Shown: positions 2,574-58,590 of the stretch, piece after piece
How positions within the stretch are numbered: the first letter of the stretch is position 1
Layout of the letters: each line of letters opens with the position of its first letter
The notes under the pieces: model-generated
What the model was told of the DNA's origin: nothing
What the model saw: the letters and a program-made list of their open reading frames with translations, nothing else
Database searches by the model: none
Translations under genes and position numbers: made by a program
NCBI GenBank assembly: GCA_012295275.1
Contig: CM022677.1
Span: 13,578,001-13,642,000 of the forward strand
DNA from: Chrysomallon squamiferum
Taxonomy: Eukaryota > Animalia > Mollusca
Length of the DNA: 64,000 nucleotides
Direction: 5' to 3'

Positions 2574-2627
<54 letters not shown>

Positions 2628-3084: not shown

Positions 3085-3119
<35 letters not shown>

Positions 3120-4968: not shown

Positions 4969-5018
<50 letters not shown>

Positions 5019-6233: not shown

Positions 6234-6284
<51 letters not shown>

Positions 6285-6399
6285 TAATAATAATAATAAT
6301 AATAATAATAAACGTGGTTATAAAAAGAAATTAGGATTATCTTGTTTAATTATACTTTGGTTCATTTTATTATTATTATTATTATTATTATGATTATCA

Positions 6400-6431
<32 letters not shown>

Positions 6432-6762: not shown

Positions 6763-6821
<59 letters not shown>

Positions 6822-16426: not shown

Positions 16427-16429
16427 ACT

Positions 16430-19160: not shown

Positions 19161-19230
<70 letters not shown>

Positions 19231-22444: not shown

Positions 22445-23190
22445 GTCAAACACGTAATTTAATTACCTTAGAATGATCGGCCACCTGCCAAACACAACAC
22501 CGTCTGACAGCCTCCTGTCGGAATATGGCATCCAACCACAGAAATACAGAAGAAAGCTGCAGCTACTGAAATACAACCTGAAAATACACACCCTGAACAC
22601 AGACCACCCCGTCAAGGATCTGGTCCCCGACCAACAAAGAATAGGGCAACCCTTTAAGTCTACTTCTATTGAATTTCCCGACAACAGCCAGCGATATCGA
22701 AAGGGAAACAGGAATTGGGGAAATGCCACTGCCAGCAATAAACACACCTTTCCTAATCAAGACAGAAACAGACAAAACAGAGTTACCATCCTTCATAAAA
22801 GCCATATTTCTAGCAGCAGCAAACCACCACTACAAACAACACAGGAACATCTACGCCAACGGATCCAAAACCCCAGACAACGGGCGAGTAGGATTCGCCT
22901 TCATAGCCCAAGATCACAAAAACAAACCCACATGCATACAATTCGACCGTATCACAAATCACCTTTCAGCATGCACGGCCGAATTCCAGCAGACCAGACC
23001 TACTCAGCAAAATACAACATCTACACGAGGACATACAACACAACGACAAACAACTAATCATCAAGTGGCTCCCAGCACGTCAGCATCATCAGCAACGAAC
23101 TTGCAGACCATTACGCCAAAGAGTCACTCAGCATCAAAAAGAAGACAAAACTATACGTACTTACTTTCAGACCATACTAACCTGGTTATC
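22445..23190 (+). mobile_element. Non-LTR retrotransposon fragment with RNase H domain
   Basis: NIYANGSKTPDNGRVGFAF (IYTDGSK-like), SACTAE and frameshifted LIIKWLPA..IISNELADHYAK (WxPxHxGxxGNExAD-like). An A-run follows at ~23197. Confidence 0.8.
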
Positions 23191-33624: not shown

Positions 33625-33824
33625 NNNNNNNNNNNNNNNNNNNNNNNNNNNNNNNNNNNNNNNNNNNNNNNNNNNNNNNNNNNNNNNNNNNNNNNNNNNN
33701 NNNNNNNNNNNNNNNNNNNNNNNNNNNNNNNNNNNNNNNNNNNNNNNNNNNNNNNNNNNNNNNNNNNNNNNNNNNNNNNNNNNNNNNNNNNNNNNNNNNN
33801 NNNNNNNNNNNNNNNNNNNNNNNN
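33625..33824. other. Assembly gap (200 N)
   Basis: Run of N bases. Confidence 1.
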
Positions 33825-33974
33825 TGACTGAAGTGTTTGTATAAGACTAAAGTCATGTACAGACTGCAGTGCTGTAGTACAGAAAATGATTGTCACAGTT
33901 TATTATGTTCAATGAAATTTCTTCATTTTACTCAATCTTTTGAAAGATAAACTAAAGTTTGTATTCTCTCTTTT

Positions 33975-34498
33975 CAGAATTGTACACGTCAAGAATGCCT
34001 ATGTCACTCTTTGTCGCTCTGGCAGTATTTTTTTCAGTGGATTTAATATTCTTTGTCTTAGACTTTTCTATACTTTCACACCAGTACTTTTTATTCCTCC
34101 AAATGAAGAAATCCTTCAAACATCTTTTTTTAGCAGTGTCATTAATGATCTTCCCTCTTTTCACCTTCATATTCTTGCACATCTTTTTCGATTCCACCAT
34201 TACACGTTTTCTGCCTCCTTTCTGTTTACTTTTGTGTTCATGTTACCTCTACTTCACTGTTCCCTCTGCTTTGGTTCATTGAGCCATACCTTCTCCTGGT
34301 GGTTTGTGGATAATCTCACACAGGCCTTCATTAAAACCCAGTCTCCTCTTTCATTTGTGGTACTTGTCTTTGAACATCTCGTGTGGATAGATATCTTTAG
34401 TGCAAGGAATGCAGCCTGATAGGGTCCATAGAAGAAAATTGGATATTTTGGAGTTTTTACTGACGGTGGAGGTCATCAATCCTTGCCAGCCAGTGTGA
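33975..34498 (-). pseudogene. Second copy of the inverted PWWP retrocopy segment
   Basis: Minus strand reads [56 protein letters not shown]. Confidence 0.86.
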
Positions 34499-34501
34499 AC
34501 T

Positions 34502-35616
34502 GATTGTTTCGAGTAAAAGGAAAGTATTACATGGCAGTGAAAGCAAATCGAAACTCAGTCTGTTAGAGAAGATGACACCAATCAACACAGCATAGATAAA
34601 CATTGTGATGAAAAGGTGACGGAAAAGTCAAAAACAGATACTAAAGTAAAAGAGGATGAACGCAAAAAGTAAAAATAAACTAACAAAAAAAGAAAGTTGG
34701 GAGTAGATGATGATGAAAACAAGAAAAAAACTGGATGACGATCGCATACAGCAGGAATGTAGTGAGTGAATCAGACAGAAAGCAGAGGTTGTCTTCAACA
34801 AGTTCAAAGCTTTTTTCTCAAAGATTGATGCAGACAAGCTACAACAGGTTGATAAACAAAGCAGTGAAGAAGGTGAGACGCCATGTGATTTGAAACAGTA
34901 TGAAATAGTGGATGGGAACATTGATGTGAACAAACCACTGAACATATCAGCAGGTGACTCACAATTAACTAATAATAGTTTAGTTAAAACAGAGAAGGGA
35001 GAACCTTCGTGGCCTACAAGTGACAATAACTTTCCAAGGTGAAACAAAGATAACCACGAGGAAGGAACACAAGGTCACAAACCACAGCTTGAAAGTGACA
35101 ATGTAGAAGAGAAAACAACTAAACAGTGTGTCTGAAAGGGTTGTTAGTGATGTGTCAGCCACTTCTCTGCTGCAGTCAGGTTATAATTCTGCTAGTACTG
35201 GATTGCATTCTGGGATCACAGTGGTGTCTCATTCAAAGACAGAGGATGCTGGGAAGGCTTCTGGGAAATATTCGGGTATTGTAAAAACAAGGCTGTTAGA
35301 TGTTCCTCTCACAGACGTGTCATCAGACAGCAGCAGCTTGAAACCAACACACTGAAACTCTCCTTTATCAAGTGATGATGATTCTAGTCCCAACACAAAC
35401 AATTCACCTCTTGTAAGCTTCCAGAGCGATGGTGATGAAGCTGAATGGAGGAGGGTATCAGTGACAAACTAGAGGAGATCATAAAGGAAACGTTAGCCAG
35501 CGAGACAGCAAAAAGAGAAGCAGTAGCTAAAGAAGAGAACATAAGACAACGGCAGACAGTAACATGATGCTGTCATGGACGATGATGAGGAACTCTATAA
35601 ATTACTTGGTGTTTAG
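34502..35616 (+). pseudogene. Second copy of the sense 3' part of the LEDGF/HDGFL2-like retrocopy
   Basis: IRQKAEVVFNKFKAFFSKIDADKLQQVDKQSSEEGE is in frame in this copy. It ends DDDEELYKLLGV*. Confidence 0.72.
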
Positions 35617-37234
35617 AATTTGTTAGACATGTGATGTTCGTGGGTTAATAGATAGCCTGATAGAAACACAGATAAGCTTTTCTCCAGACATTAACACTTT
35701 GAAAAAACCATCAGACACCATTTCCAGTTTTATCTCAAAATGTTTACCTCTTTATCTTTTAGAGTAGATGTTTTTTGAAATATTGTTTTAGTTTTTGTTA
35801 TTTTATAAAGTACTGTATCAACAATTTACTTTATAAAGATGTTTTAATACTTTTAGATGTATTTTTGACAGTACAGGTGTAAAATATGGGTGGCATTCAT
35901 ATTTTATAGAAACTTTTTGATCAGTGTTATAATCAGCTAGTTATGTCTAGTGAATATTCAATACTGTCCAAATTTCTAGGTTTTTACTTTCTATCTTTTG
36001 TGTTAGCATCTTTTTAAATTCTTATTATATTTCTGGAATTTGATAAAAGTGCTATTTTAAAAATGTACTTATTATTTAATGTTTCCTTGGTGTCTGTTAA
36101 TATGTTATTTGTGTGGAGCAAGGGAAAGAGATTTATATTCTGCTATCATTGTTATGTGTGTATCTATGCCTCATGCACATGTGTGTGTAAAAACAACTTT
36201 CTTTCATTTTATGAATGCTAACAAACCTCAGTATATAAATATGTATTAGTGATGTTATTTTAATTTTTTATTATAATAATAATTATTATTACTTTTATAT
36301 TAATATATATTTTTTTAATTCTCATAAATTGTTTGTTTTACTGTTAATGTGAGATGTTTGCAATATTTTGATCATGCAATTTTGAAATCACCATCAAAAA
36401 GTCTTCAGATATAAATGTTAATTCCATTATTATTAAATCTCTTTGAACAACAAATGTCCAATATTTTCAACAATATGTTTTGATCTGGTGTGTTTTGTTC
36501 TCTTTTGTTTGGTTGTGTGATGTTTATTTTAATTTTATTTGATGTGTGTTGTGTGATATATAATGGATATATGATGGATTTGTCAGGTTTTTTTTATAAT
36601 GTTAACATTTTAGTATTAAAATATAACTTTAATAATTTAATGAAATATTTTAATAAATGATGTTAGTATGTAATTTTCAGTATTAACATTGCTATCTTAT
36701 TAATGTTTGACACGTGGTTTTCAATATATAACATTACTATCTAATTAATGTTTGACTATAAAACAGTTATTTGGATTCCCTTATCCAATATATTTAGAAT
36801 CAAAATTAACTCAAAATGAATATATCGTTTAATAATATAGGTTTTGTTGATAATATGTCGATGATTTTATATAATAAGTTTAATAATTTTAGTGAAGAAA
36901 AGTATCTGTTATGCTGTGCATCAAACAACTGAGACATTTCACCATTTCAGCTCTTCAGATGAGAAAAAAAAAAACCTCATCCATAATTTGTGTTGTTTAT
37001 AATTATACTACTGCCAAAAAAATGTTCCCCTCAATGTCTGTTTATTATAAAATATTCTTTTATTAGTATTTATTATTTTTATTTTTTTTCAATTGTATAT
37101 TTCTGATTATGTAATTTTAAAAAGTAGCTGGCAATCAAATGGAGAAAATATACTTTTTGAAAAAAGGACAGAAACATTATTTATTTATTTATTTATTTAT
37201 TATTTATTTATTATGGTTTATTATTATTATTATT

Positions 37235-39841: not shown

Positions 39842-41680
39842 CACACACACACAGATACACAGTCACCAAGAATCATATCTACATAAACAAGTCACTGAAA
39901 ATAACCATGTTGCCCAAATCCAATTTTTATTTTAAAAAAATGTCCACCTACACCAGCACTTATCTACTGTTTTACTTTGATCTTACCCATCACTTCCCTG
40001 TCCCTAGAGAATTAACACACCCCTCAAAAATATTCAACAGATCTGTATACCCTCCTCCATCATATATATATATAAATGTTAGTAATGTTAGAAATAAATT
40101 ATCCGTAAAGAAAACAAGCACATTGTGGTTTTAAAATCAGTTTTATTTCGATTAATGGTTACAGAAAGTGGTAAATTTTAGTTTTTATAAGTACTTCATT
40201 TAATAGTTGTTAACACACTAATTTCAAAAACCATATTTATTTCATTTAATAGAATAATAGTAAAAAAAAACAATAATTTCAAAAATCATTTTATTTCATA
40301 TAACAATTAATTGTTTACAGAAAATATCAAAACATGCATTAACTTTACATTATTTTATTTCATTTAATAATAAATTGTTTACAGAAAATAGTAAAAAGAA
40401 ATAACAAAATGGTTTTAAAAATTGCTTTCATTTCATATTTAATGTTTACACTAACTATTTAAAAAACAACAAAGTAATTTATAAAAATAGTTTCAGTTTA
40501 CTTCATTTCATTTAAAGTTTACTAAAGTATTATTAATAAAAATAAAAACAATTAAGTACCTAGCAGAAAACAACGACTAAGACTGAATGCATTTTAAAAT
40601 AAGTTTAATGTTAATACATTTTTCATAATTATGAGAGAGAGAGAGAGATTGTTGTTGTTGTTTTTTTATTATTATTTCTTACTCCTTAAAGTTCTGTTCT
40701 TGTTTTAATTATTTATTTATTTATTTATTATTTTTTATTTATAAAGGAGTAATGTTGTCCTTGCTAGTAACAGTGGTGAGTTAGTAGCTGGAAGTATGTT
40801 TGATTACATTTTGCAGTTTCCCATTGGGTTGCTCCTATTTTTGTTTTGTTTTTTCAATCACAATGAGGCCCATTTTAGGTAGCAGAATAATTTCTGGTTT
40901 TGATGGTCTAGATCAGATAATGTAATTAGAGATGGTTTTTATTGTTATTTATTTTAATGATGATTGTTATGAGGCTTTGTTTGGGTTATCAGATACTTAA
41001 ATGTCTGTTGCAGATGTCTGTCAATGTACATCCACTCAATCATGAAGACAGTTATAACAAACAGTTAGATAACTGCTTCCATTGGTCAGCAAGAAAAAAT
41101 ATGTTATAAACACCTTCTCGTAGACAGTAAAACATCTGTCACAGATTTTGATCATTCATTCACTGAGTTCTACTCAGAACAGGAAAATCCTAATACTTAC
41201 TGAGACAAAAACTGATCTTGTTGGTCAGATCTCACTGAAAAACAGTCACCTTCATTTTATTATCACTGTGAAATAAAAACACACCTTGTAATTTCACCTC
41301 TATGCCTGTGTCTAACAAAGTGGAAATTTGCACATTATTAATATTATTTTTGACAAACAAGTAATCTGAACATTGTTCAAAGTTCTTGTACTCTGAACAT
41401 TTTCAGTAACCTCCCTTTGTTTAACTTTCACCAGTTACACCGATTCCCACCATCCCTTTCACAAAAGCTGGTGAACCACTGGTATTATAATTATTATTAT
41501 AATTAGTAGTAGTAGTACTACTATTATTGTTATTACAGCTACTGCTACTAATACTGCTACAAAAAATTATTATTATCTCTATAATTATTATTAGTAATAG
41601 TAGTAGTAGTATAGTACTGGATTGATATTGATTATTACTGGAAGTATTATTATATAAAAGTATTGTTATTGTTATTATTA

Positions 41681-42033: not shown

Positions 42034-42296
42034 CAGTGGTACCTTGACTTACAAGTGTTTTTTGTTGTTGTTTTAATGTTTTTTTCAGTCTTGTCGTTTC
42101 CTCAATGAAGGTACCTGCGAGTCCTGCTGTCCCCAGCAGTATACATTGACCTTGACCTTGATAAAATGGTGCTTATTCCAAAAGCAAAGTTCATATTAGG
42201 GTCTCTGTGTGTGAGGAGATGTCCAGGTAAAAAACAAAGAGTGAAAATAGTAAAAATGTATTAATTATAAAAAATAACAACAACATAATCTGTTCA

Positions 42297-42623
42297 AAAA
42301 AGCCATATTTCCAGCAGCAGCAAACAACCACTATAAACAACACACGTACATCCAAAAACCCAGACAACAGGAGAGTAGGATTCGCCTTCATAGTCCAAGA
42401 TCACACAAACAAACCCACATGCATACAATTCGGCCGTATCACAAATCACCTTTCAGCATGCACGGCCGAATTCCAGCAGACCAGACCTACTCAGCAGAAT
42501 ACAACATCTACACGAGGACATACAACACAACAACAAACAACTAATCATCAAGTGGCTCCCAGCACATGTCAGCATCATCGGCAACGAACTTGCCGACCAT
42601 TACGCTAAAGAGTCACTCAGCAT
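42297..42623 (+). mobile_element. Non-LTR RNase H fragment (paralog of 22797-23133), truncated at the viral junction
   Basis: Encodes KQLIIKWLPAHVSIIGNELADHYAKESLS. Homology to the first copy stops at GAGTCACTCAGCAT. Confidence 0.85.
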
Positions 42624-42659
42624 ATTGTTCATTTGATTATTATCAGTTGTTGAATTAGG

Positions 42660-43025
42660 ATGTTCACAGCTTTGGGTATAATTGCTACTGAAATCATTGA
42701 ATTTGCGTTTGATACATCAGTGGAACTTGCTACATCAGCTATTACAGATTCTACCGCTCCAGCTATAGCCGAAATTGTCGGAGCTGACAGTGTATATCTA
42801 CCTCAAGCGACTGCTATCGGACAAAGTATAGTTGAATCTTCTGTAGAAGGCACTGCTAGCTATACTAAAACTCAAATAAACGACGCTTTGGATCAATTCA
42901 CTGATTTTGTGAATTCAAAAGATACAGCAGTAGATAATAACGTTTAATCTGAAGAACGAGAGGAATTGGAAACTGAAGAGGACGAATACGTATCATATAT
43001 GCATACTACTAGTCCAATTTCATGA
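42660..43025 (+). pseudogene. Viral small upstream ORF (~121 aa), genome 1; one premature stop at 42945
   Basis: MFTALGIIATEIIEFAFDTSVELATSAI...V*SEEREELETEEDEYVSYMHTTSPIS*. It is homologous to 48152-48515, and its TGA overlaps the capsid ATG (ATGA). Confidence 0.8.
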
Positions 43026-44664
43026 ATAAAGGGAAACGTATATTAAACAAGAAGGACGTTACCAGACTTTGGGCTATAGCTAAAGCTAAAGCATTTGATA
43101 TATTATCAGAGATAAATGTGCCGGTGGATCAGCGGTTACAAATTCGGCGTCAATATCCAAATTTACAGATTCCAAATCAAGATTTCTATTCGGCAATACA
43201 AAATATTCGGAACGAATATAACCATATTGAAGATCAAGACGAAGAGGACCCTTTTAATACGCCTATATACCCAGAAGACGAACAAGCATTAAAAGCATCA
43301 GAACAACAAGGCATGAAACGACAAAACATCAAACCTGGAGGAGGATCTAGCTCCAAAGTTCCTAATAATAATCAACTATCTACGAGGATATCACAAGATT
43401 TATTGGATCAATATAATTCCAAAGGAACGTATGTTCAACCTCAAGAGTCCGTAATGGAACCTGATTCTATCATGAACGAAGAGGTAACTGATACAGGTGG
43501 AAGTGAAGCCGTAGAAGGTGCTCCTATGGCCTCTGCTACAGGAAATAACGTTTTATACCAAGGATTTGGAGGTACAACGTCTGGAGCTAATCATTTAAAC
43601 GAACATTCACTAGTGAGATTAATTTCTCTAAACAAAGAAAACCTAGTATGTCAGTTATAGATAATGCAACAGATGCTTCAGCATGGAAAAATGCAATAGG
43701 TGATCCAAATGTGTGAATTTACATTCAATCATGGTGGTCACATTATACCTTATTGGTATAAAGCAGCTAGTACGAAGGCAGACGATTGGAATTTACCTGA
43801 TGAGGTTGTAGGCTATAAAATTAAAAAATTCGGATTTAATATAAATAATATGATAATACATGTTCCAAACGAAGTACCAGTAATGGCACCTCCAAATGCA
43901 CGAGTTTGGACATTTACAGATATTTATAATGATTATGGATTACCTGATAAACATTTGGACCTATCTCATAATAATCGATTAAAAGATGAAGAATGTATGG
44001 ACTGCTATCACTACCTATTTTAACCATCAGTACAGGAATGTACACTATTCAGCTTGTTATCAAAATAAAGCTGGTAAAGATTTAGGAGCACGATCGATGG
44101 CAGATGATGCTAGCACCAAACTAGGTAAAAGCGGTATATCTAGCAATGATTTAGATAATCCAAATGTGAACACGTGCATGGACGGTAAACACCGTCGTAC
44201 GTATCAGTGCAATAGACCTCCTATGTTCCTAATAGGTTTATACCCTGATGTAGAGAAAACTAGCAACGGAGCTACATTATTCTTTAATTACCATGCTAAC
44301 ATACAAATAACTTATTATAGCGAGGTGGAGTTTTTAGTCAGAACGGCAATGTGTCCAAAATACATACCTATAGGTTTGGGTGGATGTCCGTCAGGTAATG
44401 GCAGGACTCATTTTTAAATTGAACGATACTACAACTGTAGGAAATAAAGACAATGTGAAACATACAGAACAAGATCAATTCTTAGATGAAACTGTAAAAC
44501 AATATAAAGATCGAATCGAAAAAACATGGAAAATGAGAATATATGCCCCTATATGGGACAATTGGAATAAACGTAAAGCCAGACGACGATTTATCTGGCC
44601 AGTACACGGTGCTTATGGAGATAGAAGTGTACCTATTACAGGAGATTGGTCTTATCCAGTATAA
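43022..44664 (+). pseudogene. Parvovirus-like capsid (VP) gene, genome 1, frameshifted and internally deleted
   Basis: ORF fragments 43022, 43700, 43986 and 44380 are colinear with 48512-50479. Motifs include GGHIIPYWY, WTFTDIYNDYGLP, RPPMFLIG..QITYYSEVEF (reminiscent of parvoviral jelly-roll strands) and a basic C-terminal NKRKARRR. AATAAA follows at 44671. Confidence 0.75.
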
Positions 44665-44754
44665 AAACAAAAATAAATAAATGAAAATACTTTCTCATAG
44701 TTGCGTAAGAATACAGTTAAAAGTATGTTAATATTTACGTTCATTTAGTCACGT

Positions 44755-44806
44755 AACATTTATTACGTCATGTTTGTGACGTCATGTTCATAACGTTATA
44801 AATAAA
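44755..44806 (+). promoter_or_regulatory. Internal NS1 promoter, genome 1
   Basis: GTCACGTA, TTACGTCA and TGACGTCA (CRE/ATF-like), followed by TATAAATA at 44797. The same arrangement occurs at 50551-50608. Confidence 0.7.
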
Positions 44807-44912
44807 AGATCGTTCAGCGAAAAAATTACTCATTTGTTTGTTATCTGTTACATGAAATTGAATATTTTAAACAAACATATACATTTAATTTTGATTGTCA
44901 TCAGGATTAATA

Positions 44913-47012
44913 ATGGATAGATATGTTGAAACCGTTGGAGATAGTTATTATAGTGTGGTTATAGGACACACTAGTTACGACATGGTACACCTGAAATTTT
45001 TGGTACCCAGATCTCTAGCTAAAGACAAAGAAGGTAAATACGTTTACGCACCAGGCAAGAATTATATTAAAAGCTACCAGATGGATCAGCAAGACATATT
45101 AGACAAGACTGTGGATCATTGGGCCACGCCCAATTACGAATATCTGGCAAAAGGACAGGACAGAGTCGTGACAGAATTGAAATCCTTTATACGAAACAAG
45201 AACTGGAAGATACTATTAGTATATCATCAAAAAGATTGTCAAGTAGAAAGTAATTATCCTACTTATGGTTCTCACGTTCACATTATATGGAAAACTAACA
45301 TGAAGACCCCATCACAAGATAGACAATACAGACGACTCCATCGTGCAATTTTAAATGAAAAGGGATACATCAGGATTCGTAAATTGAAGGATCCACAATG
45401 TACATCTGTAGAAAACTACATGATGTATTTGATGAACGATTCAGAGAAGATGTATTTAGGAACAAATGACGAAAAGATGCTACACATTTGGAACGAAACA
45501 GAAAAATGTTCCAACGAGGAGGAAGAAGACTTAATGAACGTTCTGTTAGATTTTTTTGACGATCAACCAATAAAAGATAACAGTACAATTATTTCCGATA
45601 TCAAAGAGCCTGTGAGAAAGGAAGACGTCAATTCCAATAAGAGTACAACATCATCTCATGTCGTGAATCACGGCAAAGAAACATCTTCCGCAGCAGCTAA
45701 GATGGAGGAAGTGATGTTAGAAACTATACCTGAAGACAAAAACAGGATCAACTAGTTCCATCTCATCTGATAACGAACAAATCAGCTGATACATTTGACT
45801 TCTTTTATAAACTAATAGTTAAACATCCAGACGTGAACAAACTGAATTTTTTAATCAGCAAATATGACAGTAACAGTAACGAGTTTAAAGCTATATGTAG
45901 CTAACACATCAGGAGAAAAGCTATTCAAGGCTGCTAGATCGAAATACATGGAAGAGGAAGCAGACAAGAACGCATACGACCAGATTCTGTCATTATCGGA
46001 AAACATCGATAATTACATGACACCAGATAACAGTTTAAAAGTGTTCAACACCTGGTGTGTAGAACAATGCATTCCTGAACGATGGTTGTATGTGTTAATT
46101 GTTTCTGTTTTGAAAGGAAAAGGAAAAAAGAAAGTAGGATTGTACTTACAAGGAGAATCCGATTCCGGTAAAACAATGATATCGAGCAGTATGTTCGAAT
46201 GTCTTAACTGCGCCGGAAAAATAGCCAAGGATAATGTCCCCTGGCAGATGCTAGGTAACAAGAAGATTGTGCTAGGTGAAGAGATTTGTATCACGCAAAG
46301 TAATATAGACAAGTACAAAGATCTACTAAGCGGAAGCAAAGCCACTTGTGAGCGTAAAGGAACTACACCTACCTACTGTCGAGCTAATCTATGCATGATC
46401 AACTCTAACAACCCGTTTGGTCAGATCAGTATAATGAAAACCCGACTCTATTTTCTACAGGATTTAAAGAAAAGTGATACATTGAAGCAAGCCTATAATC
46501 TGATACATCCAGGATTATTCAAAATCGGTTTCAAACCTACAGAGGACGAAATGATGATAGCTTTGGAAAATGACAGGGAATATTTTAGACTAAAACATAA
46601 TAACAATATAAATGACAATACAGTCGACGGCAGGAATAGTTATTTCAGAGATAACTTTGATGACAGTCAGACAGTCAGCGAGCCTACAACACATATACTT
46701 TGCAATTCATCACCTAACAAAAGAAAATATATCGAGATATCGTCAGACGATGACGAACCAGAACAGGAAAATAAGTATTGTGCTTCGCAGGATCTCTTCA
46801 TACAGAGTCAGAAACGATTCAAAGGTGAATCTGATGAAAACAAAGGTAGTAAACGTGAATTAGAAGAAGAGGATGAAGTGGTGTCTCCCACACCGCCTTC
46901 AAATAACAAAACATTAAAGATGTACATACCGGAATCTCAACCGTTCTACGACGACTTCACAGAAACAATTCAAGAGACACAAATGGACATATTTAAACGT
47001 TATAAACAATAA
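44913..47012 (+). pseudogene. NS1: Parvoviral NS1/Rep (HUH endonuclease + SF3 helicase), genome 1, disrupted around 45750-45900
   Basis: HUH motif GSHVHIIW; Tyr motif ENYMMYLMN; Walker A GESDSGKT; Walker B KIVLGEE; B' YKDLLSGSKATCERKG; motif C CMINSNN. AATAAA at and just after the stop. Confidence 0.93.
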
Positions 47013-47314
47013 AAATAAACGTAATAATAAACATTAAAAGACATCAGTGCTGATTTATTGTTCTTACGTTGATATTAATGTTCATTAAAAGTTATTTCTT
47101 GAAATAAAATTATTTATTAAAATTAATTACCTTCGTTTAGTTAATTATTTAAATAAACTATTACTATCGTCTGCAATATAACGGAAATGACGTCATATAA
47201 AATAACTTCATTTAAAGAAACGGATATGACGTCATATCCATTTAAATTATATACTCTCTTCAAAATAAAAAATAGGGGTCGGGGGTGTGAAAATGCAAGA
47301 TATGATAGATTATC

Positions 47315-47758
47315 AACTCTACTCTTGTTATAGTAAAAAAAAAAAGTTCCTCACTACATGGCTTTTTAGCTTTTTGGCTTTTTAACCAAATGTACTTTTA
47401 ACCCGAAGGTGATAATGTTCCTTCGGGCGAAGCCAAAACCCGAAGGATCATAAGTTAAAAAAACAAAGTTCCCCATGATTGGCTTTTGGCTTTCGGCTTT
47501 TTAACCAAATGTACTTTTAACCCGAAGGTGATAATGTTCCTTCGAGCGAAGCCAAAACCCGAAGGATCATAAGTTAAAAAAACAAAGTTCCCCATGATTG
47601 GCTTTTGGCTTTTGGCTTTTCGACCAAATGTACTTTAATTTATGCTCCTTCGGGCGAAGCCTAAGCACCTTCGGGTTAAAAGTACTTTTGGTCAAAAAGC
47701 CAAAAGTCAGTAATGAAGATCTTTGTTTTTTTTACAAATCACAAGAGTTAGGTTGACA
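47315..47758. repeat. Right terminus of genome 1: two tandem half-hairpins (~120-bp period) plus one imperfect full hairpin
   Basis: AAAGTTCC..GGCTTTT..CCAAATGTACTTTTAACCCGAAGG.. units start near 47343, 47465 and 47584. The last one folds back (..AAAAGTACTTTTGGTCAAAAAGCCAAAAG). Confidence 0.88.
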
Positions 47759-48001
47759 ATTTCTACCTAACTCTTGTTTACTGTTAAAAAAACAAAGTCC
47801 CTCATTAACTGGATTTCTGGCTTTTTAGCTTTTTGACCACAATGTACTTTTAGCCCGAAGGTGATAACGTTCCTTCGGGCGTAGCCAGAACCCTTCGGAT
47901 CATAAGCTAAAAGTACATTGTGGTCAAAAAGCTAAAAAGCCAGAAATCCAGTTAATGAGGGACTTTGTTTTTTTAACAGTAAACAAGAGTTAGGTAGAAA
48001 T
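47759..48001. repeat. Left terminal hairpin of genome 2 (perfect 96-bp inverted arms, 51-nt structured loop)
   Basis: 47759-47854 is the exact reverse complement of 47906-48001. The loop holds CCGAAGG..CCTTCGG and GGC-GTA-GCC mini-stems. Confidence 0.95.
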
Positions 48002-48054
48002 CTATCAGGTCATGATTTAAACACCCAAACATTGCTTTTTTTTTTTTTTTAAGA

Positions 48055-48125
48055 GTATTACGTCATATCCGTACTGTCACGTGATATTATGTATATATTA
48101 CAATACATTTTACAATTATATCATT
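48055..48125 (+). promoter_or_regulatory. Left-end viral promoter, genome 2
   Basis: TTACGTCA (CRE-like), GTCACGTGA (E-box), TATATATT at ~48093 and TCATT (initiator-like) upstream of ATG 48152. Confidence 0.55.
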
Positions 48126-48151
48126 TGTGATCAAGTCATTCACTCGATAGG

Positions 48152-48515
48152 ATGTTCACAGCTTTAGGAATTATAGCAACAGAACTAATTGAATACGCCT
48201 TTGATGCTTCAGTGGAATTAGCTACATCTGCTATAATAGAATCTACAGCACCTGCTATTACTGATAGTAGGTGCTGACAGTTTATACCTAGAACCAGCTA
48301 CAGCTATTGGACAGTCGATAGTGGAATCGTCAGTTGAAGGTATTTCTACATTTACTAAGAATCAAATACAAGAAGCATTAAATCAATTTGGTGATTTAGT
48401 TAAATCGAGTGGAAAGGACATTGATACTAACGTTTCTAAGTCTGAACGAGACGACTTAGAACAGGAAGAGGACGAGTACGTAAGTTACGTATATAGAAAC
48501 AGTCCAGTTTCATGA
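48152..48515 (+). pseudogene. Viral small upstream ORF, genome 2 (one frameshift near 48265)
   Basis: MFTALGIIATELIEYAFDASVELATSAIIESTAPAI../..ESSVEGISTFTKNQIQEALNQFGDLV..EEDEYVSYVYRNSPVS*. Confidence 0.8.
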
Positions 48516-50479
48516 ATAAAGGAAAACATCTTCTGAATAAGAAGGAAGTGACACGACTTTGGGCAATAGCTAAATCTAAAGCATAGTCCATATTAGCAGA
48601 CTTAAACGTGCCGGTTGATGAGCGCCAAGATAGGTGGTTACAAATACGACGTCATTATCCAAATTTACAAATTCCTAATCAAAGTTTCTATCAGGCAATA
48701 TAAGATCTTCGGGAAAACCATTACAATCCTGAGAATTCGGACGAAGAAGACCCTTTCAATACACCTTTATACCCAGAAGACGAACAAATACAGGGTAGAC
48801 CACAGTCACAACCAAAACAAGCTATGAAGAGACAAAGAACTGAACCAGCAGGTGGATCAAGTTCGAAAGTTCCTAATAACAATCAATTATCAGATAGAAT
48901 ATCTCAAGATGTATTAGAACAATCTAATTCTAAAGGAACTTACCTTCAACCACAAGAGTCTGTAATGGAGCCTCATTCAATAATGAATGAAGAGGTGGCA
49001 GATACAGGTGGAAGTGAAGCTGTTGAAGGTGCTCCGATGGCCTCAGCTACAGGTAACAACGTTTTGTACCAAGGATTTGGAGGCACCACTAAAGCAGCTA
49101 ATCCACAATATATATAACTATTAAAAAGACATTCAAAAGAACATTTACAAGTGCAATAAATTTTACTAAGACTAGGAAAGCTACCATGAAAATATTAGAT
49201 AATGATACAGAAAATATTAATTGGAAAAAGGCTATAGGTGATCCTAATGTTTGTGAATTAACATTTAATCATGGAGGACATATTATACCGTATTGGTATA
49301 AGCAAGCTAGCACTAAACCTGATGATTGGAATTTACCAGATGAATTTGTTGGATATAAGATAAAAAAAATTGGATTTAATATAAATAATATGATAATACA
49401 TGTTTTAAATAATACTAAATCAGATCCAAACGAAGTACCTGTAATGGCACCTCCAAACGCACGCGTTTGGACGTTTACAGATATTTACAATGATTATGGA
49501 TTACCAGAAAAAAATCTAGATTTGTCACATAATAATAACTTTAAAGACGAAGAATGTATGGATACTACATCTCAAAGAAGCATACTGGTTCAACCAGATC
49601 GTAAACTATATGTACCTAGTGATATAGGTAAGCAATTGTTAAATAATGCTTGGAATGGTAATGGTGTATTATATCAAGCAGAAACACCTAATTATATTTA
49701 TGACATGAAAAAACATGATGGATACCGTGAAACAGTCATAAGTGCTGGAGGATTTGGATTGGATTATACTTGTAAAGATTCCCCATTAGTTATATTTCCA
49801 GGTGAATCTACTCAGACAATTAATTTCACACAAATGTCTGGGCTAACAAAAAAAGATAGATATCAATGTAGCAATGAAAATAAAAACAATCTAGAAGTGT
49901 GGCCAACACATGACATTTCAGTAACTAATGTATCAACACATCCCATGGGAACTGCAGTAGCTACATATTTTAATCATCAATACAGAAAGGTACATTATAC
50001 AGCTTGTTTCCAAAGCAATCCATCTAAAGTTTTGGGTGCTCAATCAATGGTAGATGATGGAGGTACTAAAATGGCTAAAGGTGGTGTAATGTCAAATGAT
50101 GCAAACGATCCGAACGTTGATACATGTACGGATGGTTCGCATGGACGAACGTTTCACTGTAACAGACCTAAGTATATACCAATAGGTTTAGGTGGATGTC
50201 CTGGCCCTATGCAAGGACTTACATTTAAAGATAACGACACAAAACCCATGGGAAATAAAGACAACGTAAAACATACTGAACAAGATCAGTTTTTAGATGA
50301 AAATATAAAACAATATAAAGAACGAATTCAAAAAACATGGACAATGAGAGTGTATGCCCCTGTATGGGATAATTGGAATAAACGTAAGGCTAGACGTCGA
50401 TTATTATGTACACGGTGCATATGGTGATAGAACGGTACCAATCACTGGTAATAGTACTGATTGGCCTTATCCAATATAA
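48512..50479 (+). pseudogene. Parvovirus-like capsid (VP) gene, genome 2
   Basis: Starts MNKGKHLLNKKEVTRLWAIAK. Includes fragment 48824-49117 and the 413-aa ORF 49186-50427, and ends ..WPYPI* at 50479 after a frameshift. Confidence 0.78.
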
Positions 50480-50550
50480 ACTTATGTAAATAGTTATTAT
50501 AGTTGCGTATGAATACAGTTAAAAGTCTTTTTAAACGTTAACGTTCATAT

Positions 50551-50608
50551 TGTCACGTACACATTATTACGTCACTTTCATGACGTCATGTTCAATTTGT
50601 TATAAATA
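50551..50608 (+). promoter_or_regulatory. Internal NS1 promoter, genome 2
   Basis: GTCACGTA, TTACGTCA and TGACGTCA, then TATAAATA at 50601. Confidence 0.7.
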
Positions 50609-50694
50609 AAGACGTTCGTTTTGAGAATTTGTCACTTGTTCGTTGTTCTTTCAACATTGACAAACACTTACAATCACCAATCGGATATAGAAGT

Positions 50695-52858
50695 ATGGAT
50701 AGATTATATCGAGTTGCCTGACGATCGCTATTATAGTGTAGTAATTGGACATTCATTGTACGATATGGTACACCCGAAGTACCTAGTTCCGAGATGCTTA
50801 GCGAAAGACAAAGACGGGAAATGTGTCTATGCTCAGGGAAATAATTTTATCAAGAGTTTCCAAATGGATCCACAGGATTTATTAGATAAACCTGTGGATC
50901 ACTGGGCCACGCCTAGTCACGAGTACCTGGCACGAGGACAAGACAGAGTGATAACAGAACTGAAGTCATTCTTGAGGAATAAGAATTGGAATAAGAATCA
51001 CCAAAAAGATTGCGAGGTGGATCAATCGTACCCAAGTTATGGATCGCACGTGCACATCATATGGCGAAACAACATGAAAACTCCGTCTCAAGATAGACAG
51101 TACAGACGTTTGCATAGAGCCATGTTAAACGAAAAGGGATATATAAAGATCAGAAAAGTAAAGCAGCCACAATCTACTTCGATAGAAAACTACATGTGTT
51201 ACCTTATGAATGATAACGAGAAGATGTACCTCGGTACTAATGATGACAGAATGCTGAAAATTGTGGATAAACGTTGAAAAACGTATTCATGAGGATAATG
51301 CAGAGATTTTAAATATTCTGAGTGATTTCTTTGACAACGATAACGTGTCAGTTGACGTAACTACGTCTAACATTAAAGAACCTGTACGAAAACAGAAAAT
51401 AAATATAAAAACAGAGGAAGTAATTCCACATACGTCAATCGCTCATGGTGCAGGAACTAGCTCTATTGATGCTAAGATTGAGAGTGACTTACTGAATGCC
51501 ATGATGGAAAAAAATACTGATAATACGAATACAACGAATAACGATAAGATACCAACACACCTATTGACAAATAAGTCTGCAGAAACACTAGACTTTTTTT
51601 ACAATTTAATTGTGAAATATCCGGATGTCACTAAACTTAACATGTTAATAAGCAAGTTCGATACATCATCGAATGAATTCAAAGCATTATGCAACTCCGT
51701 TGCCAACACATCGGGAGATAAACTGTTCAAAGCAGCTCGTTCGAAGTATTTAGAAGAGCAATCAGACAAGAACGCCTTCGAACAGATTAACGATTTCAGT
51801 GATAAATAGATCATTACATGACTCCAGAGGACAGCTTAAAAATCTTTAATAGTTGGTGTATTGAACAAGAGATACCCGAACGATGGCTATACTGTCTAAT
51901 AGTTGCACTACTTAAAGGAAAGGGAAAGAAAAAGGTTGGGTTGTACTTTCAAGGTGAATCGGACTCTGGAAAGACAATGTTATCAAGTTCCATGTTTGAG
52001 TGTCTGTCATGCGCAGGCAAGATTGCCAAGGATAACTTCCCATGGCAGATGCTCGGCAATAAAAAAGTAGTATTAGGTGAGGAAATTTCAATTAACTAGA
52101 CAAACATAGATAAGTATAAGGATTTGTTAAGTGGAAGCAAGGCAACGTGTGAGAGAAAAGGGACCAAGCCATCGTATTGTAGAGCCAATATCTGCATGTT
52201 AAATTCCAATAACAAATTTGGTGATGGACTAACAACGTCTCAGATAAGCATAATGAAGACTAGATTGTATTTAATACAAAATCTCAAGAAAAGTGAAGTA
52301 CTAAAACATTCCTATAACTTGATCCATCCAAAATTGTTTACTGTTGCATTTGAGCCATCAGATGATGAGATCAACATAGCTTTAGAAAATGATAGAGATT
52401 ATTTTATTCACAAAGGAAACAATAACATTAATGATAACACATTTGACGGAAGGAACATGTATTTTCATGATAATTTCGATGACAGCCAGTCAGTGTTAGG
52501 AACTCAAGACCCTATGATCAATTGCTTGCAAGAAGACAAAATAGAGTATATAACCATATCCAGTGACGAGGATGAGGAACATGCAAACAATTCATACAAT
52601 CCATCACAGGATCTATTTATTACATCACAAAAGGTTAATGACAGTCAAGATACACATTCAAAAAGAATTAAACGAAAACGTGATGAAGAAATTGATCCTA
52701 ATTATATAACAGTTGGCGAAGAACCAAACGAACCAGAAGAAAAACATTTCAAATTTTATGTACCAGAAACACAACCATTCCATGGAATGTTTACTCAAAC
52801 GATACTTGGAACACAGATGGATACATTCAATAAATTCAAAGCCGAAAATGACTCATAA
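50695..52858 (+). pseudogene. NS1: Parvoviral NS1/Rep, genome 2, split by stops and frameshifts
   Basis: Fragments 50621, 51261, 51818 and 52124 contain GSHVHIIW, ENYMCYLMN, GESDSGKT, DNFPWQ, KVVLGEE and CMLNSNN. Confidence 0.93.
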
Positions 52859-53083
52859 ATTTACAAACATTATGTGATAATTAATTAATGTTATATTGTT
52901 AGTAAATAAATATGTTATATTATTAATAAATATTTGTATTAAAAATATATTAAATAATTACTTAATTAAAATAAAATATGTTATAAACTTATTTATGTTT
53001 TTGTTATTTATTAACAAAAAATATTTTTAAAATATTTACCAATAACGTCTGCAATTAATAACGAATATGACGTCATATATATT

Positions 53084-53396
53084 AAAACAAAGTTCCCCAT
53101 GATTGGCTTTTGGCTTTTGGCTTTTTGACCAAATGTACTTTAATTTATGCTCCTTCGGGCGAAGCCTAAGCACCTTCGGGTTAAAAGTACTTTTGGTCAA
53201 AAAGCCAAAAGCCAGTAATGAAGATCTTTGTTTTTTTTTTACAAATCACAAGAGTTAGGTTGACAATATATCACGTCTTGTCTTTCACTCCCCCCACCCT
53301 ATATACTTTTTTTTATATTTTGAGATGACGTTATGTCACGTGACTATGCACCTTCGGGTGTTAAAGTACATTTGGTCAAAAAGCCAAAAGCCAGTC
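53084..53396. repeat. Right terminal hairpin of genome 2, plus inverted ITR sequence and a final hairpin fragment
   Basis: 53084-53267 is nearly identical to ~47578-47759. 53205-53322 resembles the reverse complement of 47260-47367. 53348-53396 repeats a hairpin half. Confidence 0.88.
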
Positions 53397-56026
53397 TGTT
53401 CAACTCTGTTATTTAAATAGGTCAACTGATTCCATTTTATGTTTTAACGATGTTTTATAGGGTACATTTTTACCAGAACTCTTGGTATTTATTTATTTTA
53501 AGTTTTGATTAGATTATTAAGTACAGTATTCTTTCAAAACAAAATTATTTAAAAATATAAAATTAAATTTAAAAAAAAATATCTCCCTTAAACCAAACAT
53601 TTTTTAATACGAAGTCTGTACTTTTATTTTAAGTCAGTAATAAAGGATTTCTGACACTAAATCATTTTAAAAAAGTAACTTCTTTTACCACAGACTTGCC
53701 TGTACTTGGTGCTGTGTCTGGTCCAAACGTTCAGTATACTGAATAAATCTGATCACATCTTTCATGAACAACATTGTAACTTTGAATCTAAATTCAGTAT
53801 CACAATATTATAAATTCTTCAATAAGAACAGTCCATGATTCACACAAGTAATGTTTTTAAAATGTTATTTTATCCAGTTATTCAGTTCTTTATATTTACT
53901 GTGGAGATGTTTTCTTCTTTTATTAGTTCATTCAGTTCCTTATAACTTAGAGGCAAACTTGTTTTTAGATTCAGTTTACATCAGTTCTTGTTAATAGCTT
54001 TCTGTGGTGACTGAAATATAAAATAGTACATTCAAACATTTTAACAAGACCCACTATAATTTTATATTTTATCATTTGAATCTGAAGAAATGTTTTCAAC
54101 CAATAATAAGTACAGTTAATTTAACTGAAATAAAATAGAGTTTAATTATATTTATTTAAACAGTCTTGTTGGACCTCTATTTTTCATTGTATATATATAT
54201 TTTTTTTTTTTCTTTCTTAAAGCAGTAACTTCCATTTTACTTTTAATTAAGTACATAAATTAATATATTTTATAAAAATTGACAACAAGTAAGATCAGTA
54301 ATATTTATCTGTTAATTTTTGAACATACATTTTCTAAAGTACAGTCCTTTTCTCCCAACTGCTGTATCAATGTCACGTTTTGTCTTTTTCTTTGCATCTA
54401 CAGATACCATTATTTAAAAAAAGAAAATTATATATAATAATAATATTAAAATATTCTCATATGGCATTAAATGATTTATATTTTACAGTTTATAAAATCT
54501 AGTTGTAAACTGAATTACCTTTCCATTATACTCAGCATTTGGTTACAAAACATTGAACTCATCTGAATTTCTGAGTTTGTACAAATTTCTTTTAACACCA
54601 CGAACTGGAGAAGTGATTGTTCTTCACTGAATTGTACTACAAGCCTGGTCATGTGGTCATCCTTGGCCTGATAGAACTTGTTGTGGTCAGCAAGGGCTTG
54701 TTTATCCTGTAAAAGTAGTAAACAAAACTTATCCTGATAACCCTAATAAATAAAATTGATTTACTTAAAAACTATAACATTTATCATTGGAAATGATAGC
54801 AAATTTTTATTTAAAAGTTACTTGAAGTATTAAAAATTACAAATTATTTAGTCATAATAAATACATTTTACATCTTATATCATCATTAAGATATCTCTTG
54901 AAAATTATCTGCTTGTCTGTTATTTTTTTAAAAATACAGAAGTTTATAATTTTTAGTGTTCATAACCAGCAAGTTTCTTCAGTTTTGTGTCAAACTTTAT
55001 AATTAACAAGATTGTTCACCATAAATAAACAAAATAATATTTTGGATGCCTTTTTTTCTTGGATTTTAATAATAAAGAGTTAATTTTTTTATTTTTTTTT
55101 TTTAATTTCCAAAACATAGGATGTTGTATATAAGATTTTTGTTAATAATAACTTTTCTGTTTTACTTTTTTTCTTATGCAATATTAGTTTAATTATATCT
55201 TTGAAAAACAGCAGTTTCAAGCCTTTTGTCTGTAGTTTCAAGCCTTTTGTCTGCCCGGACAACATGGGGACAATGTGAGAATTCTGTCACATGAACTGAC
55301 ATGATCAACATCGTGGACAACATGGACTGCAGTGGAAGTTCAGTCATCTTAAATATAACACAGAAGTACATGAGTTATTAAAACTTATAACATACATATA
55401 TATGATTAATAGTTTGTTAAATTTTTAATTTATCAGTATTTAAATTGATAAATGTTTTAATTACAACTAGTTTTAATAAATAAAAATCTGAAATGATCCC
55501 AGAGCTCACTCTATCCTTAAAACATTACCCTGTTTCCAATTCCACACTGAGTTCCATTCATAATTTATCTTGTATTGTGTCTGTGCCGCGTCTTAAACCA
55601 TCATTAATTTCTACAGATTTTGGAATAATTTTTTTAAAGAAATAAACAGTTTTATAAACTTTCAAATTCTAAATGAAAATTAGGATTATGTAATATCAGG
55701 TTTTAATTTTTGATCTTTTTTTTAAACATTTACAGTGTTTAAAGTTAAATTCTGTTAATTTATGTATAATAAAAATAATAATAAATAAATAATTAGTAAA
55801 ATAATAGGTCTGTTTCAATAGCTATTATATCGGTGAGAAACGTGATTTATAAATATTTTTTTAGCTGCTTTTCCTAATTATTTTCTTTCCTTATTTTATT
55901 TTATTTTATTTTATTTTCTAGTCAAATTGGTTATCAAGTATTTTATTTCACAGTGGTTAATCACTGGAATAAAGTGAGAGAGAAAACTGTAAACTATGAA
56001 TTAAACTGACTGCTGTGTTTTCTGTA

Positions 56027-56220: not shown

Positions 56221-56599
56221 CTGGCTCCATTATAAAAGAAATTGAAATGTGTCTTCCTGTCCATGTGTACACAAGTAATTAAACATTTCAGACAGAAAAT
56301 CAGTGAATCTAGAAAACACAACAGATTTAGATAATTAAACCATTCAACACAATCTGCAAATACTTCTGTTTTTCAGGTCAAAAGGATATTTTCTAAGCCA
56401 TTCTAAGACAGTATTTATTAATTATAATTGTATTTATGTTTGTAGAGAGGAAGGAATGTGATGATATTTCTTCTAGATAAGATGAACAGCAAACAGTCTC
56501 TTGATGTGTTTGAGTTGATGTTGAAGAACTGGACATTCATCGCCAACAAATGAAGTAAGAACTTTTTAATGTTACAAACAAAATAAATACTAGAAAACA

Positions 56600-58590
56600 T
56601 AAAGTCATGTTTAAGACATTTTCTTTGCCTCTTGAAGATGGCTGCAGCACTGTGAAATCCATGGCTACAATCTCATGAGGTCTAATAACAATACGATGTC
56701 CCAAAGGTAGTTTCAGTTTGAGTTGTGGCAGTTCTGCCACCATACACCTTTCACACTCTTTACACCACTTGTTCCACATCTTTGTGCACTGCAAGCCAGC
56801 AACAACTTCTTCTAATAAGACTCATTCTTCTTTCAAAACCCTGGTGTCCTGTCTGATTGTGTAAACTCTACAGAACTTTCTTCTTCATCATTCCTGGTAG
56901 TACAGTCTGCTTCATTCTTCCCAAGTTGGGGTCCTTTACTTTTCTGTAAAGTGCTTTGTTTTCACGAAATAATCTGTCCCACTGCCAGATTACTGTGAAG
57001 AAACCTGATTCTTCTAATCTTCTCTCAGCTCTGCATGGTAGCCATGTAATACAGCAATCTCCTTATTAACTTGTCTTTTGCCTGCATCACTGCTAGTTCT
57101 GGTAAAGCTGGGAGATGATGTTGTGGCTTCCATAGTTTCATTAAATTGTTCCACTGCAACAGTTTATTGTGTGTTTTCTTCCACCACAATTTTATAACTT
57201 GTTTCATTGTCTGTGGAACTTCTGTACTACTAGCAGTATCTCTAAAGCAGCTTCCACTGAAGTAGACATCATTCCATGAAATTTCTTCCTGGATAGACCA
57301 TCAGTATTCTTATTGTGTTGAATGATATTTCACATCAAAATCAAATTCTACCAGCTGAGACCCCCATGTTTCTTCCACTGCCAATTTCAGACCAACAAGC
57401 TCTAACTTCATGGAACTGTAATTATTCATGTTTCTCTCAGTGGGTCTCAAGCTCTTTCTAGCAAATGCAATTTTTTTCCTTTGCCCATTCTGCTCCTGTG
57501 ACAGTACTGTTCCCACAACTCTCAACCCAAGTACCCTTTAACAGTGCTTGATATTTGATTTTTGAGTAACTAAGAATCCTTTAACATATCATCTGAAGTA
57601 ACTGGCAAACTGCAAAAATGACACCAGGCCCTTTGGTGTTTTTGGAACCTACCATTCAAGAACAGCCTTTATTTTGTCTGGATCTGTAACTACCCCATCT
57701 CTAGACATCACGTCCTAGATATTTCACTTCTTTCTTAAGGAAACAGCGTTTGCTTGGTTTTAGTTTGAGCCCATGCTGTTTTAAAATGTTAAATACCTCT
57801 TCTAATTTATCTATGCACACAAAAAAAAAGAACACTGAAATATCTGCTCTGTAAAGCAATGCTGCATAAGTCTTTGAAATGTGGCCGGTGCTCCTGATAA
57901 ACCAAACAGCATATGATTGTATTTAAACAAACCCATTGGAGTGATGAATGCAGTTTTGTCTTTGTTTTTATCCTCAACTGCAATTTGGTTGTATTCACTG
58001 GCCATATCCATATAGTGAACCAGTTTGCTCTGTGCAAAGCATCTAATGACTTCTATTGTAGGTAGTGGAAAGCAGTCTTTCCTAGTTTTAGCATTCAGCC
58101 ACCTGTAGTCCACACACAGATGAATTGTGTTGTCTGTTTTTCTCACTATAACAATAGGAGATGAATATGGGCTGTGGCTGGGTCAAATTGCATCTTGTTT
58201 TATAAGTTTCTTGATCAGCTTCTTGACTTCCTGATACTGACTGTGTGAAATTCTTCTGTATGGTTGTGACACTGGTATGTTATCAGTTGTGCATATGTGA
58301 TATTTTACAGAGTCAGTAAACCCCAAATCAAGGTTATCTTTAGCAAATACATCAGTTAAATATTCTCTTTAACATCAGAGTATTTGTTCAGTATTCTTTT
58401 TAACTTTTTCTTCTGCTCATCAGAAATATCAACTTGAAATCTATCAAACTCTGTGTATACTAACTGTAATCTGCTCCATGCAAACTTCTTCTCCTTGTCC
58501 TTTATTGACTGAGGCTCTTCTACTTCTACCACTGATGACAAAACACCCACTTTAGTTCTTGGTTTCAACCCTATTTTACAACACAAATCT
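56600..58590 (-). mobile_element. Degenerate Ty3/Gypsy LTR retrotransposon pol (RT-RNase H-integrase)
   Basis: RT: LCVDYRWLNAKTRKDCFPLP and KTAFITPMGLFKY..FGLSGAPATFQRLM. RNase H: GTVLSQEQNG..IAFARKSLRPTERN..YSSMKLEL. Integrase: CKECERC..PHEIVAMDF. Domain order is RT-RH-INT; many stops; no LTRs seen. Confidence 0.93.

Follow-up and report, generated by a model that had tools for sequence, protein, structure and literature searches.

Two distinct parvovirus-like genomes joined in tandem through hairpin telomeres in the Chrysomallon squamiferum assembly, a probable product of germ-line co-infection

Introduction

The window analysed here, a 64,000-nt stretch of Chrysomallon squamiferum contig CM022677.1 (GCA_012295275.1), contains viral sequence at 42623-53395, which consists of two parvovirus-like genomes, unit A and unit B, that lie head to tail on the + strand and meet in hairpin telomere sequence. 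Silent sites are near saturation between the two units, with a divergence of at least about 2 per site, whereas the clocks that run in host time give about 1% or less; the divergence therefore predates insertion, and the claim of a preliminary description of this DNA, that the units are different exogenous viruses and not a host duplication, is strongly supported. The locus is probably a recent single insertion, in a germ-line cell, of a concatemer formed during co-infection by two viruses that differ at the species level. The preliminary description placed the tandem at 42660..52858, which lies within the element but understates its extent.

Parvoviral endogenous elements are often fragments, and the present one preserves hairpins and promoters, together with the arrangement of the genes, from an unclassified lineage that is otherwise known from unnamed proteins.

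Divergence between the two units

In each unit a small open reading frame (ORF1, about 121 codons) is followed by a capsid-like gene (VP, about 690 codons) whose start overlaps the ORF1 stop (ATGA), a 240-nt spacer with an internal promoter, and NS1 (about 700 codons), which is followed by poly(A) signals (Table 1). Self-comparison of the window gives three collinear blocks between A and B at 69-74% nucleotide identity. The bodies of the two units have no 40-mer in common (0 of 4,579), and 49 of 281 are common to both junctions.

The coding sequences were compared over 18 ungapped in-frame blocks (1,144 codons) taken from tblastx hits and divided into six partitions. Differences number 222, 149 and 574 at the first, second and third codon positions, so that 574 of 945 are at the third, in agreement with the preliminary description, which had illustrated this with the Walker A motif of NS1; the two strings, found once each at 46149 and 51950, both encode QGESDSGK. 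Its statement that the NS1 linker and C-terminus are strongly diverged also holds, with 39% identity (34/87) in the linker and 44% in the C-terminal blocks, while the nickase and helicase-flank pieces are 70-76% identical and the helicase core matches at 81/94 residues. Over the whole of NS1 the proteins are 65.8% identical (452/687). Parvovirus species are delimited by ICTV, the international committee for virus taxonomy, at more than 85% NS1 identity, and A and B, being far below that line, would not belong to one species.

Purifying selection is evident throughout. The dN/dS ratio (omega), which had been proposed as a check on the idea of two viruses, is not near 1, and omega=1 is rejected in six of six partitions (2dL 12.5-354). 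Maximum-likelihood estimates under a pairwise codon model are 0.038 for ORF1, 0.27 for the VP N-terminus and 0.046 for the VP core, and within NS1 about 0 (saturated) for the nickase, 0.011 for the helicase and 0.077 for the C-terminus; Nei-Gojobori distances are undefined for NS1 (pS 0.87-0.95), and the codon-model estimates were used instead. Identity at four-fold sites of NS1 is at the level of saturation, with 0.30 against 0.27 expected in the nickase (n=37) and 0.33 against 0.30 in the helicase (n=58), and the VP core (0.48 against 0.37) falls slightly short of it. In both units the GC fraction at third codon positions is 0.20-0.24 for ORF1 and the VP core, against 0.38-0.46 for the nickase and helicase of NS1.

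Every ORF of A and of B carries a break, and as a virus the element is dead. Lesions were placed against intact natural relatives and by pairwise alignment of A and B; those in the middle of VP were taken from the relatives' alignment, as the MAFFT pairwise alignment was misaligned across two large deletions, and a 12-nt indel near 48614, not assignable to A or B, stands outside the count. There are nine lesions in A and eleven in B, with none of the 20 shared, the closest pair being unlike frameshifts in VP, at residue 185 of A and residue 187 of B. The disabling lesions thus lie at different places, as originally reported, and the combination that had been named as contrary evidence, dN/dS near 1 with shared inactivating mutations, is absent, omega being low and the lesions all private.

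The time since insertion can be gauged in three independent ways. Four nonsense codons in 2,844 correspond to 0.9% (0.2-2.3%) neutral change, and the repeated telomere module described below gives 0.55% per branch (0.07-2.0%). The arms of the palindrome, with 0/96 mismatches, are a weak clock, as hairpin arms may be homogenised. Tandem viral copies should not be dated as if they were host duplicates; for this element such dating would give an age too great by two orders of magnitude.

A tandem duplication, in the host, of an old domesticated element that was kept under host purifying selection and recently inactivated would account for A and B being each other's closest relatives, and low dN/dS alone is silent on where selection acted. 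Saturated silent sites are, however, incompatible with a perfect 96-nt palindrome and a module 98.9% identical between its copies unless these are young. A host duplication would also predict even divergence in coding and non-coding DNA, which is not what is observed. Selection spans capsid, ORF1, NS1 and promoter alike, the 20 lesions extend across all genes of both copies, and no flanking host DNA is duplicated in the window self-comparison, which leaves this explanation highly improbable.

Hairpin telomeres and the joins between units

Hairpin-type sequence in the window is confined to 47260-48030 and 53080-53395. It includes a complete hairpin, the 243-nt palindrome at the left end of B; after the 96-nt arms of this hairpin, the longest perfect inverted repeat of the window is a 31-nt stretch of TA repeat. 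The right telomere of A aligns with the reverse complement of the left arm of B at 69% over 180 columns, and a further left-type arm that follows B is 68% identical to the right arm of A and 71% to the left arm of B. Four types of inner stem can be told apart, which are alike in pairs at 24-27 of 33-36 columns, while the three full arms are alike at 68-71% and the distal stems at 85-95% across all types. The loops occur in both orientations, although the evidence for this is weak (best alignments of 44 and 41 matches).

The two junctions contain near-identical copies of a telomere module (180/184 columns, with two substitutions and a 2-nt difference in a T run). TTAAAA stands at both module entries, and module 1 overlaps the palindrome of B by 2 nt (47759-47760). 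Between the right telomere of A and module 1 is a 119-nt repeat which, from the origin of its parts, is a recombinant duplication of two stem types. The four stem types may represent two viruses, each having a left end that differs from its right end, or as many as four whose ends are identical; in the two-virus case, type 3 may be the lost left end of A and type 2 the right end of B. The third and fourth telomere types, like the capsid-first gene order treated below, have no place in the preliminary description.

Sequence of this kind raises the question of an assembly chimera, in which separate endogenous elements, or an element and free viral DNA, were joined in silico via the hairpin module. 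The boundary contains the 184-nt repeat (98.9% identity) and the 119-nt tandem repeat, sequencing through hairpins is difficult, and PMC12287923 reports parvoviral elements that were assembly artefacts. Both units are decayed, however, so that neither is a free virus; the sole gap in the window (200 N at 33625-33824) is 9 kb away; and the repeats are short relative to read-pair and long-read spans, with unique sequence flanking each. The lesions include in-frame losses of 3-46 codons, and the seven short frameshift sites inspected are not long homopolymers. A chimera is quite unlikely, and even if it were true the two-virus and capsid-first conclusions would stand.

Identity of NS1 and its relatives

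NS1 matches PF01057 in both units, and both carry GSHVHII and the YxxYL motif. A structural model of the NS1 of an intact natural relative, P0014 (pLDDT, the predicted local distance difference test, 76.5; 28 rows), matches parvoviral NS1/Rep proteins, the best being an unclassified Parvoviridae NS1, A0A7D3UI69 (E 5e-53, 25% identity), followed by Rep68 of adeno-associated virus (AAV); none of the named structural matches exceeds 17% identity. A tree of 34 rows built on the nickase domain places A and B as sisters (99/94), followed by an intact relative from other assemblies.

About 30 further NS1 relatives (P0015-P0049) have nickase domains some 25-32% identical to that of A and form a broad unclassified parvovirus-like group. 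Their NS1 proteins, like A0A7D3UI69 (1,093 aa), are mostly longer than those described here (760-1,120 aa versus about 700). The NS1 relatives checked from sequencing-run assemblies are on contigs of 2.6-7.5 kb (8 of 10 clusters); for those checked among P0015-P0049 the contigs measure 3.7-7.5 kb, and for P0021, P0022 and P0023 they measure 6-7.5 kb. Relatives with DNA context were sought in viral contig, metagenome contig and phage collections, and none was found there.

Closer relatives (P0001-P0013, P0017, P0050 and P0051) comprise intact and broken VP copies, 91-99.9% identical to P0002, together with NS1 fragments, on contigs of 8,418-452,437 nt in other assemblies, with several entries per contig size; the contigs with P0002, P0009, P0017 and P0051 measure 61-452 kb. 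They are likely to be multi-copy endogenous arrays of a sister virus in another host.

The coding region of Parvoviridae lies between hairpin termini of 120-600 nt (PMC6537627). Here the 243-nt palindrome stands left of B and homologous inverted arms stand right of A and of B; in size, B (5,429 nt) and A (4,831 nt without its left end) fall within the 4-6 kb of the family. Members of the family have linear single-stranded DNA in T=1 particles and replicate by the rolling-hairpin mode; the copies available here are integrated ones. Judged on NS1, telomeres and size the element is parvovirus-like, and it departs from the family in gene order and is unplaced in any genus.

The capsid-like gene and the gene order

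The gene upstream of NS1 has an intact relative, P0002 (690 aa), from other assemblies, and searches for VP homologues returned only the P0001 cluster. All ten sets listed for P0002 in a protein language-model feature resource (Atlas) are capsid proteins of small DNA viruses, the first being PF00740 (0.91), and the gene is taken, with moderate confidence, to be a capsid gene. The virion protein of Parvoviridae is a single jelly-roll. A plant phospholipase A2 (PLA2) matched VP at E 0.1 in a PDB profile search that gave only chance matches, and was rejected. No PLA2 family match was found in P0002, ORF1 or the VP fragments, and the PLA2 domain of VP1 is optional within Parvoviridae. A search of ORF1 gave no Pfam match, and its best Atlas score (0.81) is uninformative. 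ORF1 (42660-43025 and 48152-48515), on which purifying selection is strong, encodes an N-terminus that is hydrophobic and rich in Ala and Ile, and a C-terminus that is acidic. It might serve membrane entry in place of PLA2, a guess from a likeness to minor capsid proteins for which searches gave no support. In the N-terminal region of VP (43110-43289 / 48606-48827) mismatches at the three codon positions number 22, 7 and 23, and a second frame is open in B with one stop in A, which suggests an overlapping ORF of about 60-70 codons.

In two of two units VP lies upstream of NS1 on the same strand. Hairpins occur only outside the VP-NS1 pair, with none in either VP-NS1 spacer, and the spacer is a conserved promoter; the genome is therefore read as capsid-first and single-sense, an order that is known from these two units alone. 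The spacer of B repeats the arrangement of the two cAMP-response-element-like (CRE-like) motifs, TATA box and initiator-like motif seen in A (50567, 50581, 50601 and 50632), with the initiator-like motif about 30 nt 3' of the TATA box, and after its VP gene B has no canonical AATAAA. The motif names CRE, TATA, initiator and E-box are used here as consensus labels. The sequence TGACGTCA occurs six times in the window, five of them within the element, against 0.38 expected.

PMC12297876 and PMC6521121 place NS in the left half and VP in the right half of the genome for Parvoviridae and densoviruses, and both units depart from this rule, while the ICTV profile (PMC6537627) names two cassettes and gives no order. 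If true, the capsid-first order would break with the arrangement given in reviews for the family as a whole, and the question would arise how NS1 is made early from a second gene; the likely answer is a CRE/TATA promoter of its own. This order may already be present in deposited genomes of unclassified viruses, for example that from which A0A7D3UI69 derives.

An alternative to a capsid-first genome is a circular one with a palindromic origin, which would be likewise unusual. Under this explanation, or that of two families of parvovirus-derived mobile element, gene order would be meaningless and the tandem would be a rolling-circle or nested-insertion product. The intact relative is indeed multi-copy (in other assemblies, where contigs of 8-452 kb carry copies 91-99.9% identical to P0002), and a palindrome with arms on both sides resembles a circle junction. 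However, the short contigs that carry NS1 relatives are as free viruses would be, and the homologous inverted arms of about 180 nt at opposite ends, the branched loop and, weakly, the loops in both orientations fit linear telomeres. The self-comparison, moreover, reveals no further viral copy within the 64-kb window, and such an origin is very unlikely.

Origin of the array

The genome of the free virus would have been linear and single-stranded, about 5.5-6 kb long, and would have had inverted terminal repeats (ITRs), a capsid cassette first and an NS1 cassette second, each under its own promoter. Coding divergence would have accrued in free viruses before insertion. Two such viruses would then have replicated in one germ-line cell, where their related telomeres recombined into a head-to-tail array, by template switching or by end joining at short homologies such as the TTAAAA entries and the 2-nt overlap. 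The array would have been captured at a chromosome break with loss of ends on both sides, the left end of A and the 3' end of a neighbouring long interspersed nuclear element (LINE) being lost, and would have decayed neutrally by about 1% since, mostly through small deletions.

The preliminary description had offered two routes to the join, a concatemer or sequential integration at one site. The first is preferred here, since both junctions contain the 184-nt module and A and B carry comparable numbers of lesions (9 and 11). In a sequential insertion, one virus would have integrated first; its telomere would then have been recognised by the NS1 of a later, related virus, whose genome was inserted at that point, by analogy with targeting to AAVS1. 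The arm of module 1 runs as far as the equivalent of the last position of the B palindrome, as nick-and-join at a resolution site would give; the likeness of the distal stems makes cross-recognition plausible; and the module on both sides of B can be read as a target duplication made on insertion. Against this, the module starts in the same A run on both sides of B with two substitutions, a further left-type arm follows B, and the lesion loads are alike. The sequential route is unlikely.

Several points weigh against the concatemer account and the capsid-first genome taken with it. To account for the four stem types, left and right ends must differ within each virus, or a third and a fourth virus must have contributed. 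The junction is known from the assembly alone, with a near-identical 184-nt repeat at the A/B boundary that is a possible short-read mis-join, and an equal lesion load cannot separate one event from two close in time. Taking the codon blocks from tblastx hits gives weight to conserved sequence, and a dS value higher than about 2 cannot be treated as measured. The capsid call is a suggestion from language-model features (0.91, 187 shared) with weak recognition (1550) and from a motif likeness; neither VP nor P0002 has a Pfam or PDB sequence match, and the single-sequence fold of P0002 (pLDDT 30.8) is unusable.

We lean somewhat towards a combined reading in which the viruses represent an undescribed capsid-first, single-sense branch of parvoviruses, with a small ORF coupled to VP replacing PLA2, and in which the locus is a fossil hetero-concatemer of two (possibly three or four) species that recombined at telomeres within a single germ-line cell, went into the chromosome as one array and kept a replication hairpin whole. 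If true, this would provide direct evidence, from a genome, that parvoviruses of different species infect the same germ-line cells and exchange or join telomeres, a route to recombination between species that has otherwise been studied mainly with AAV vectors.

Features of the element and its host flanks

The coordinates of the element are collected in Table 1. At its left edge the viral DNA abuts a LINE-type fragment whose PF00075 match (E 9e-05) is below the curated cut-off. A second copy of this LINE at 22792-23134 is 90% identical and extends about 75 nt further to a poly(A) tail, and the copy at the junction is without those last 75 nt and the tail; the lost 3' end was looked for on the right flank and not seen there. 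Homology of A to B begins at about 42623-42656, just before an initiator-like TCATTT at 42629. Host DNA restarts at about 53396, and no target-site duplication was seen at the element.

Table 1. Features of the tandem viral element and its left flank (window positions; lesions are listed after the genes)
Feature	Position	Strand	Description
Host LINE-type fragment (RNase H)	42293..42623	+	left junction; 3' end truncated where viral DNA begins
Virus A unit	42623..47453	+	4,831 nt; left telomere and first promoter missing
ORF1 of A	42660..43025	+	about 121 codons; nonsense codon 42945
Capsid-like gene (VP) of A	43022..44664	+	58% identity to P0002 over 519 aligned residues
VP-NS1 spacer of A	44665..44912	+	AATAAA 44672; CRE-like 44763 and 44777; TATA 44797; initiator-like 44830
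NS1 of A (HUH nickase and SF3 helicase)	44913..47012	+	PF01057 E 3.7e-07
Right telomere of A	47175..47453		CRE motifs, inner arm, stem type 1, branched loop; outer arm absent
119-nt repeat	47454..47572		inner stem from type 2 (32/32); outer stem and loop from A right end (77/78)
Telomere module 1	47579..47760		stem type 2, short loop, stem type 3
Virus B unit	47759-~53080	+	spans 5,429 nt despite deletions
Complete hairpin, left end of B	47759..48001		96-nt perfect arms, 51-nt branched loop (stem type 4); 243-nt palindrome
Inner left arm and first promoter of B	48002..48151	+	CRE-like 48058; E-box 48078; TATA-like 48092; initiator-like 48121
ORF1 of B	48152..48515	+	frameshift near 48263
VP of B	48512..50479	+	53% identity to P0002 over 637 aligned residues
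NS1 of B	50695..52858	+	PF01057 E 3.7e-04, at cut-off
Telomere module 2	53084..53267		joined to B 3' CRE without the inner arm seen in A
Left-type inner arm, further genome end	53268..53395		CRE-like and E-box motifs, then 52-nt hairpin fragment
Lesions, VP of A	43593, 43714, 44003, 44397; 43870		frameshifts near the first four; about 130 codons missing near 44003; 7 near 43870
Lesions, NS1 of A	45730-45755, 45899; 46421		frameshifts near the first two; 6 codons missing near 46421
Lesions, VP of B	48584, 48701; 49110, 50407; 50166		nonsense at the first two; frameshifts near 49110 and 50407; about 46 codons missing near 50166
Lesions, NS1 of B	50703, 51257, 51805; 52097; 50992		frameshifts near the first three; nonsense 52097; 3 codons missing near 50992

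The window around the element is AT-rich, with many microsatellites and transposon remnants, and is of the invertebrate-like animal type. On the - strand at 54518-54742 there is an open stretch of 75 codons with ordinary composition and no Pfam match, possibly a host exon, and if it is real the element may be in or next to a host gene. Further along (56500-58200, - strand) are broken remnants resembling a long terminal repeat retrotransposon (RVT_1 E 8.5e-10; RT_RNaseH). At 1025-8373 about 3.66 kb of host DNA is duplicated in tandem (98.9% identity), followed at 11200-12200 by a satellite with an 18-nt period and a near-palindromic unit (75% self-complementary). Dispersed repeats at 15752-18482 / 33826-36711 and 18580-19580 / 40062-40995 are 85-96% identical, and one copy begins immediately after the N gap.

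Comparison with known systems

The closest likeness is EmuDNV, the endogenous densovirus of Echinococcus multilocularis, which forms head-to-tail concatemers with NS1, VP, separate promoters and ITRs (PMC6880638). Its best ITRs have stems of 95-96 nt and a loop of 37 nt, compared with 96 and 51 nt here. The EmuDNV copies are, however, versions of one virus (VP 91-97% identical), whereas the two NS1 proteins here are 66% identical, and the EmuDNV VP has 321 aa and lies 67 nt downstream of NS1, in contrast to about 690 aa and an upstream position here (PMC6880638). An NS1 array of 29 copies is reported in whitefly (PMC12297876), and the available part of PMC5013282 uses neither 'tandem' nor 'concat'.

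Concatemers driven by ITRs and rearranged integration are reported for AAV and Junonia coenia densovirus (JcDV) (PMC2765622, PMC5978394). AAV vector concatemers resemble the present array in that distinct genomes are joined at hairpin ends with deletions at the junctions, but they are made of engineered vectors in somatic cells, whereas here two natural viruses, diverged at the species level, are found in a host assembly (PMC2765622). The clusters of IHHNV, the virus that causes infectious hypodermal and hematopoietic necrosis, in Penaeus monodon are likewise recent parvoviral DNA of two virus types in a repeat-rich genome of invertebrate type, but they are scrambled with one virus type each, whereas here two types are collinear and near complete in one array (PMC9357335).

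In the open-access literature, searched mostly at title and abstract level, neither a capsid-first parvovirus nor an endogenous concatemer of two species was found. Within that scope, endogenous densovirus concatemers are known already, and what appears to be new is an array of two species and the capsid-first order of its genes.

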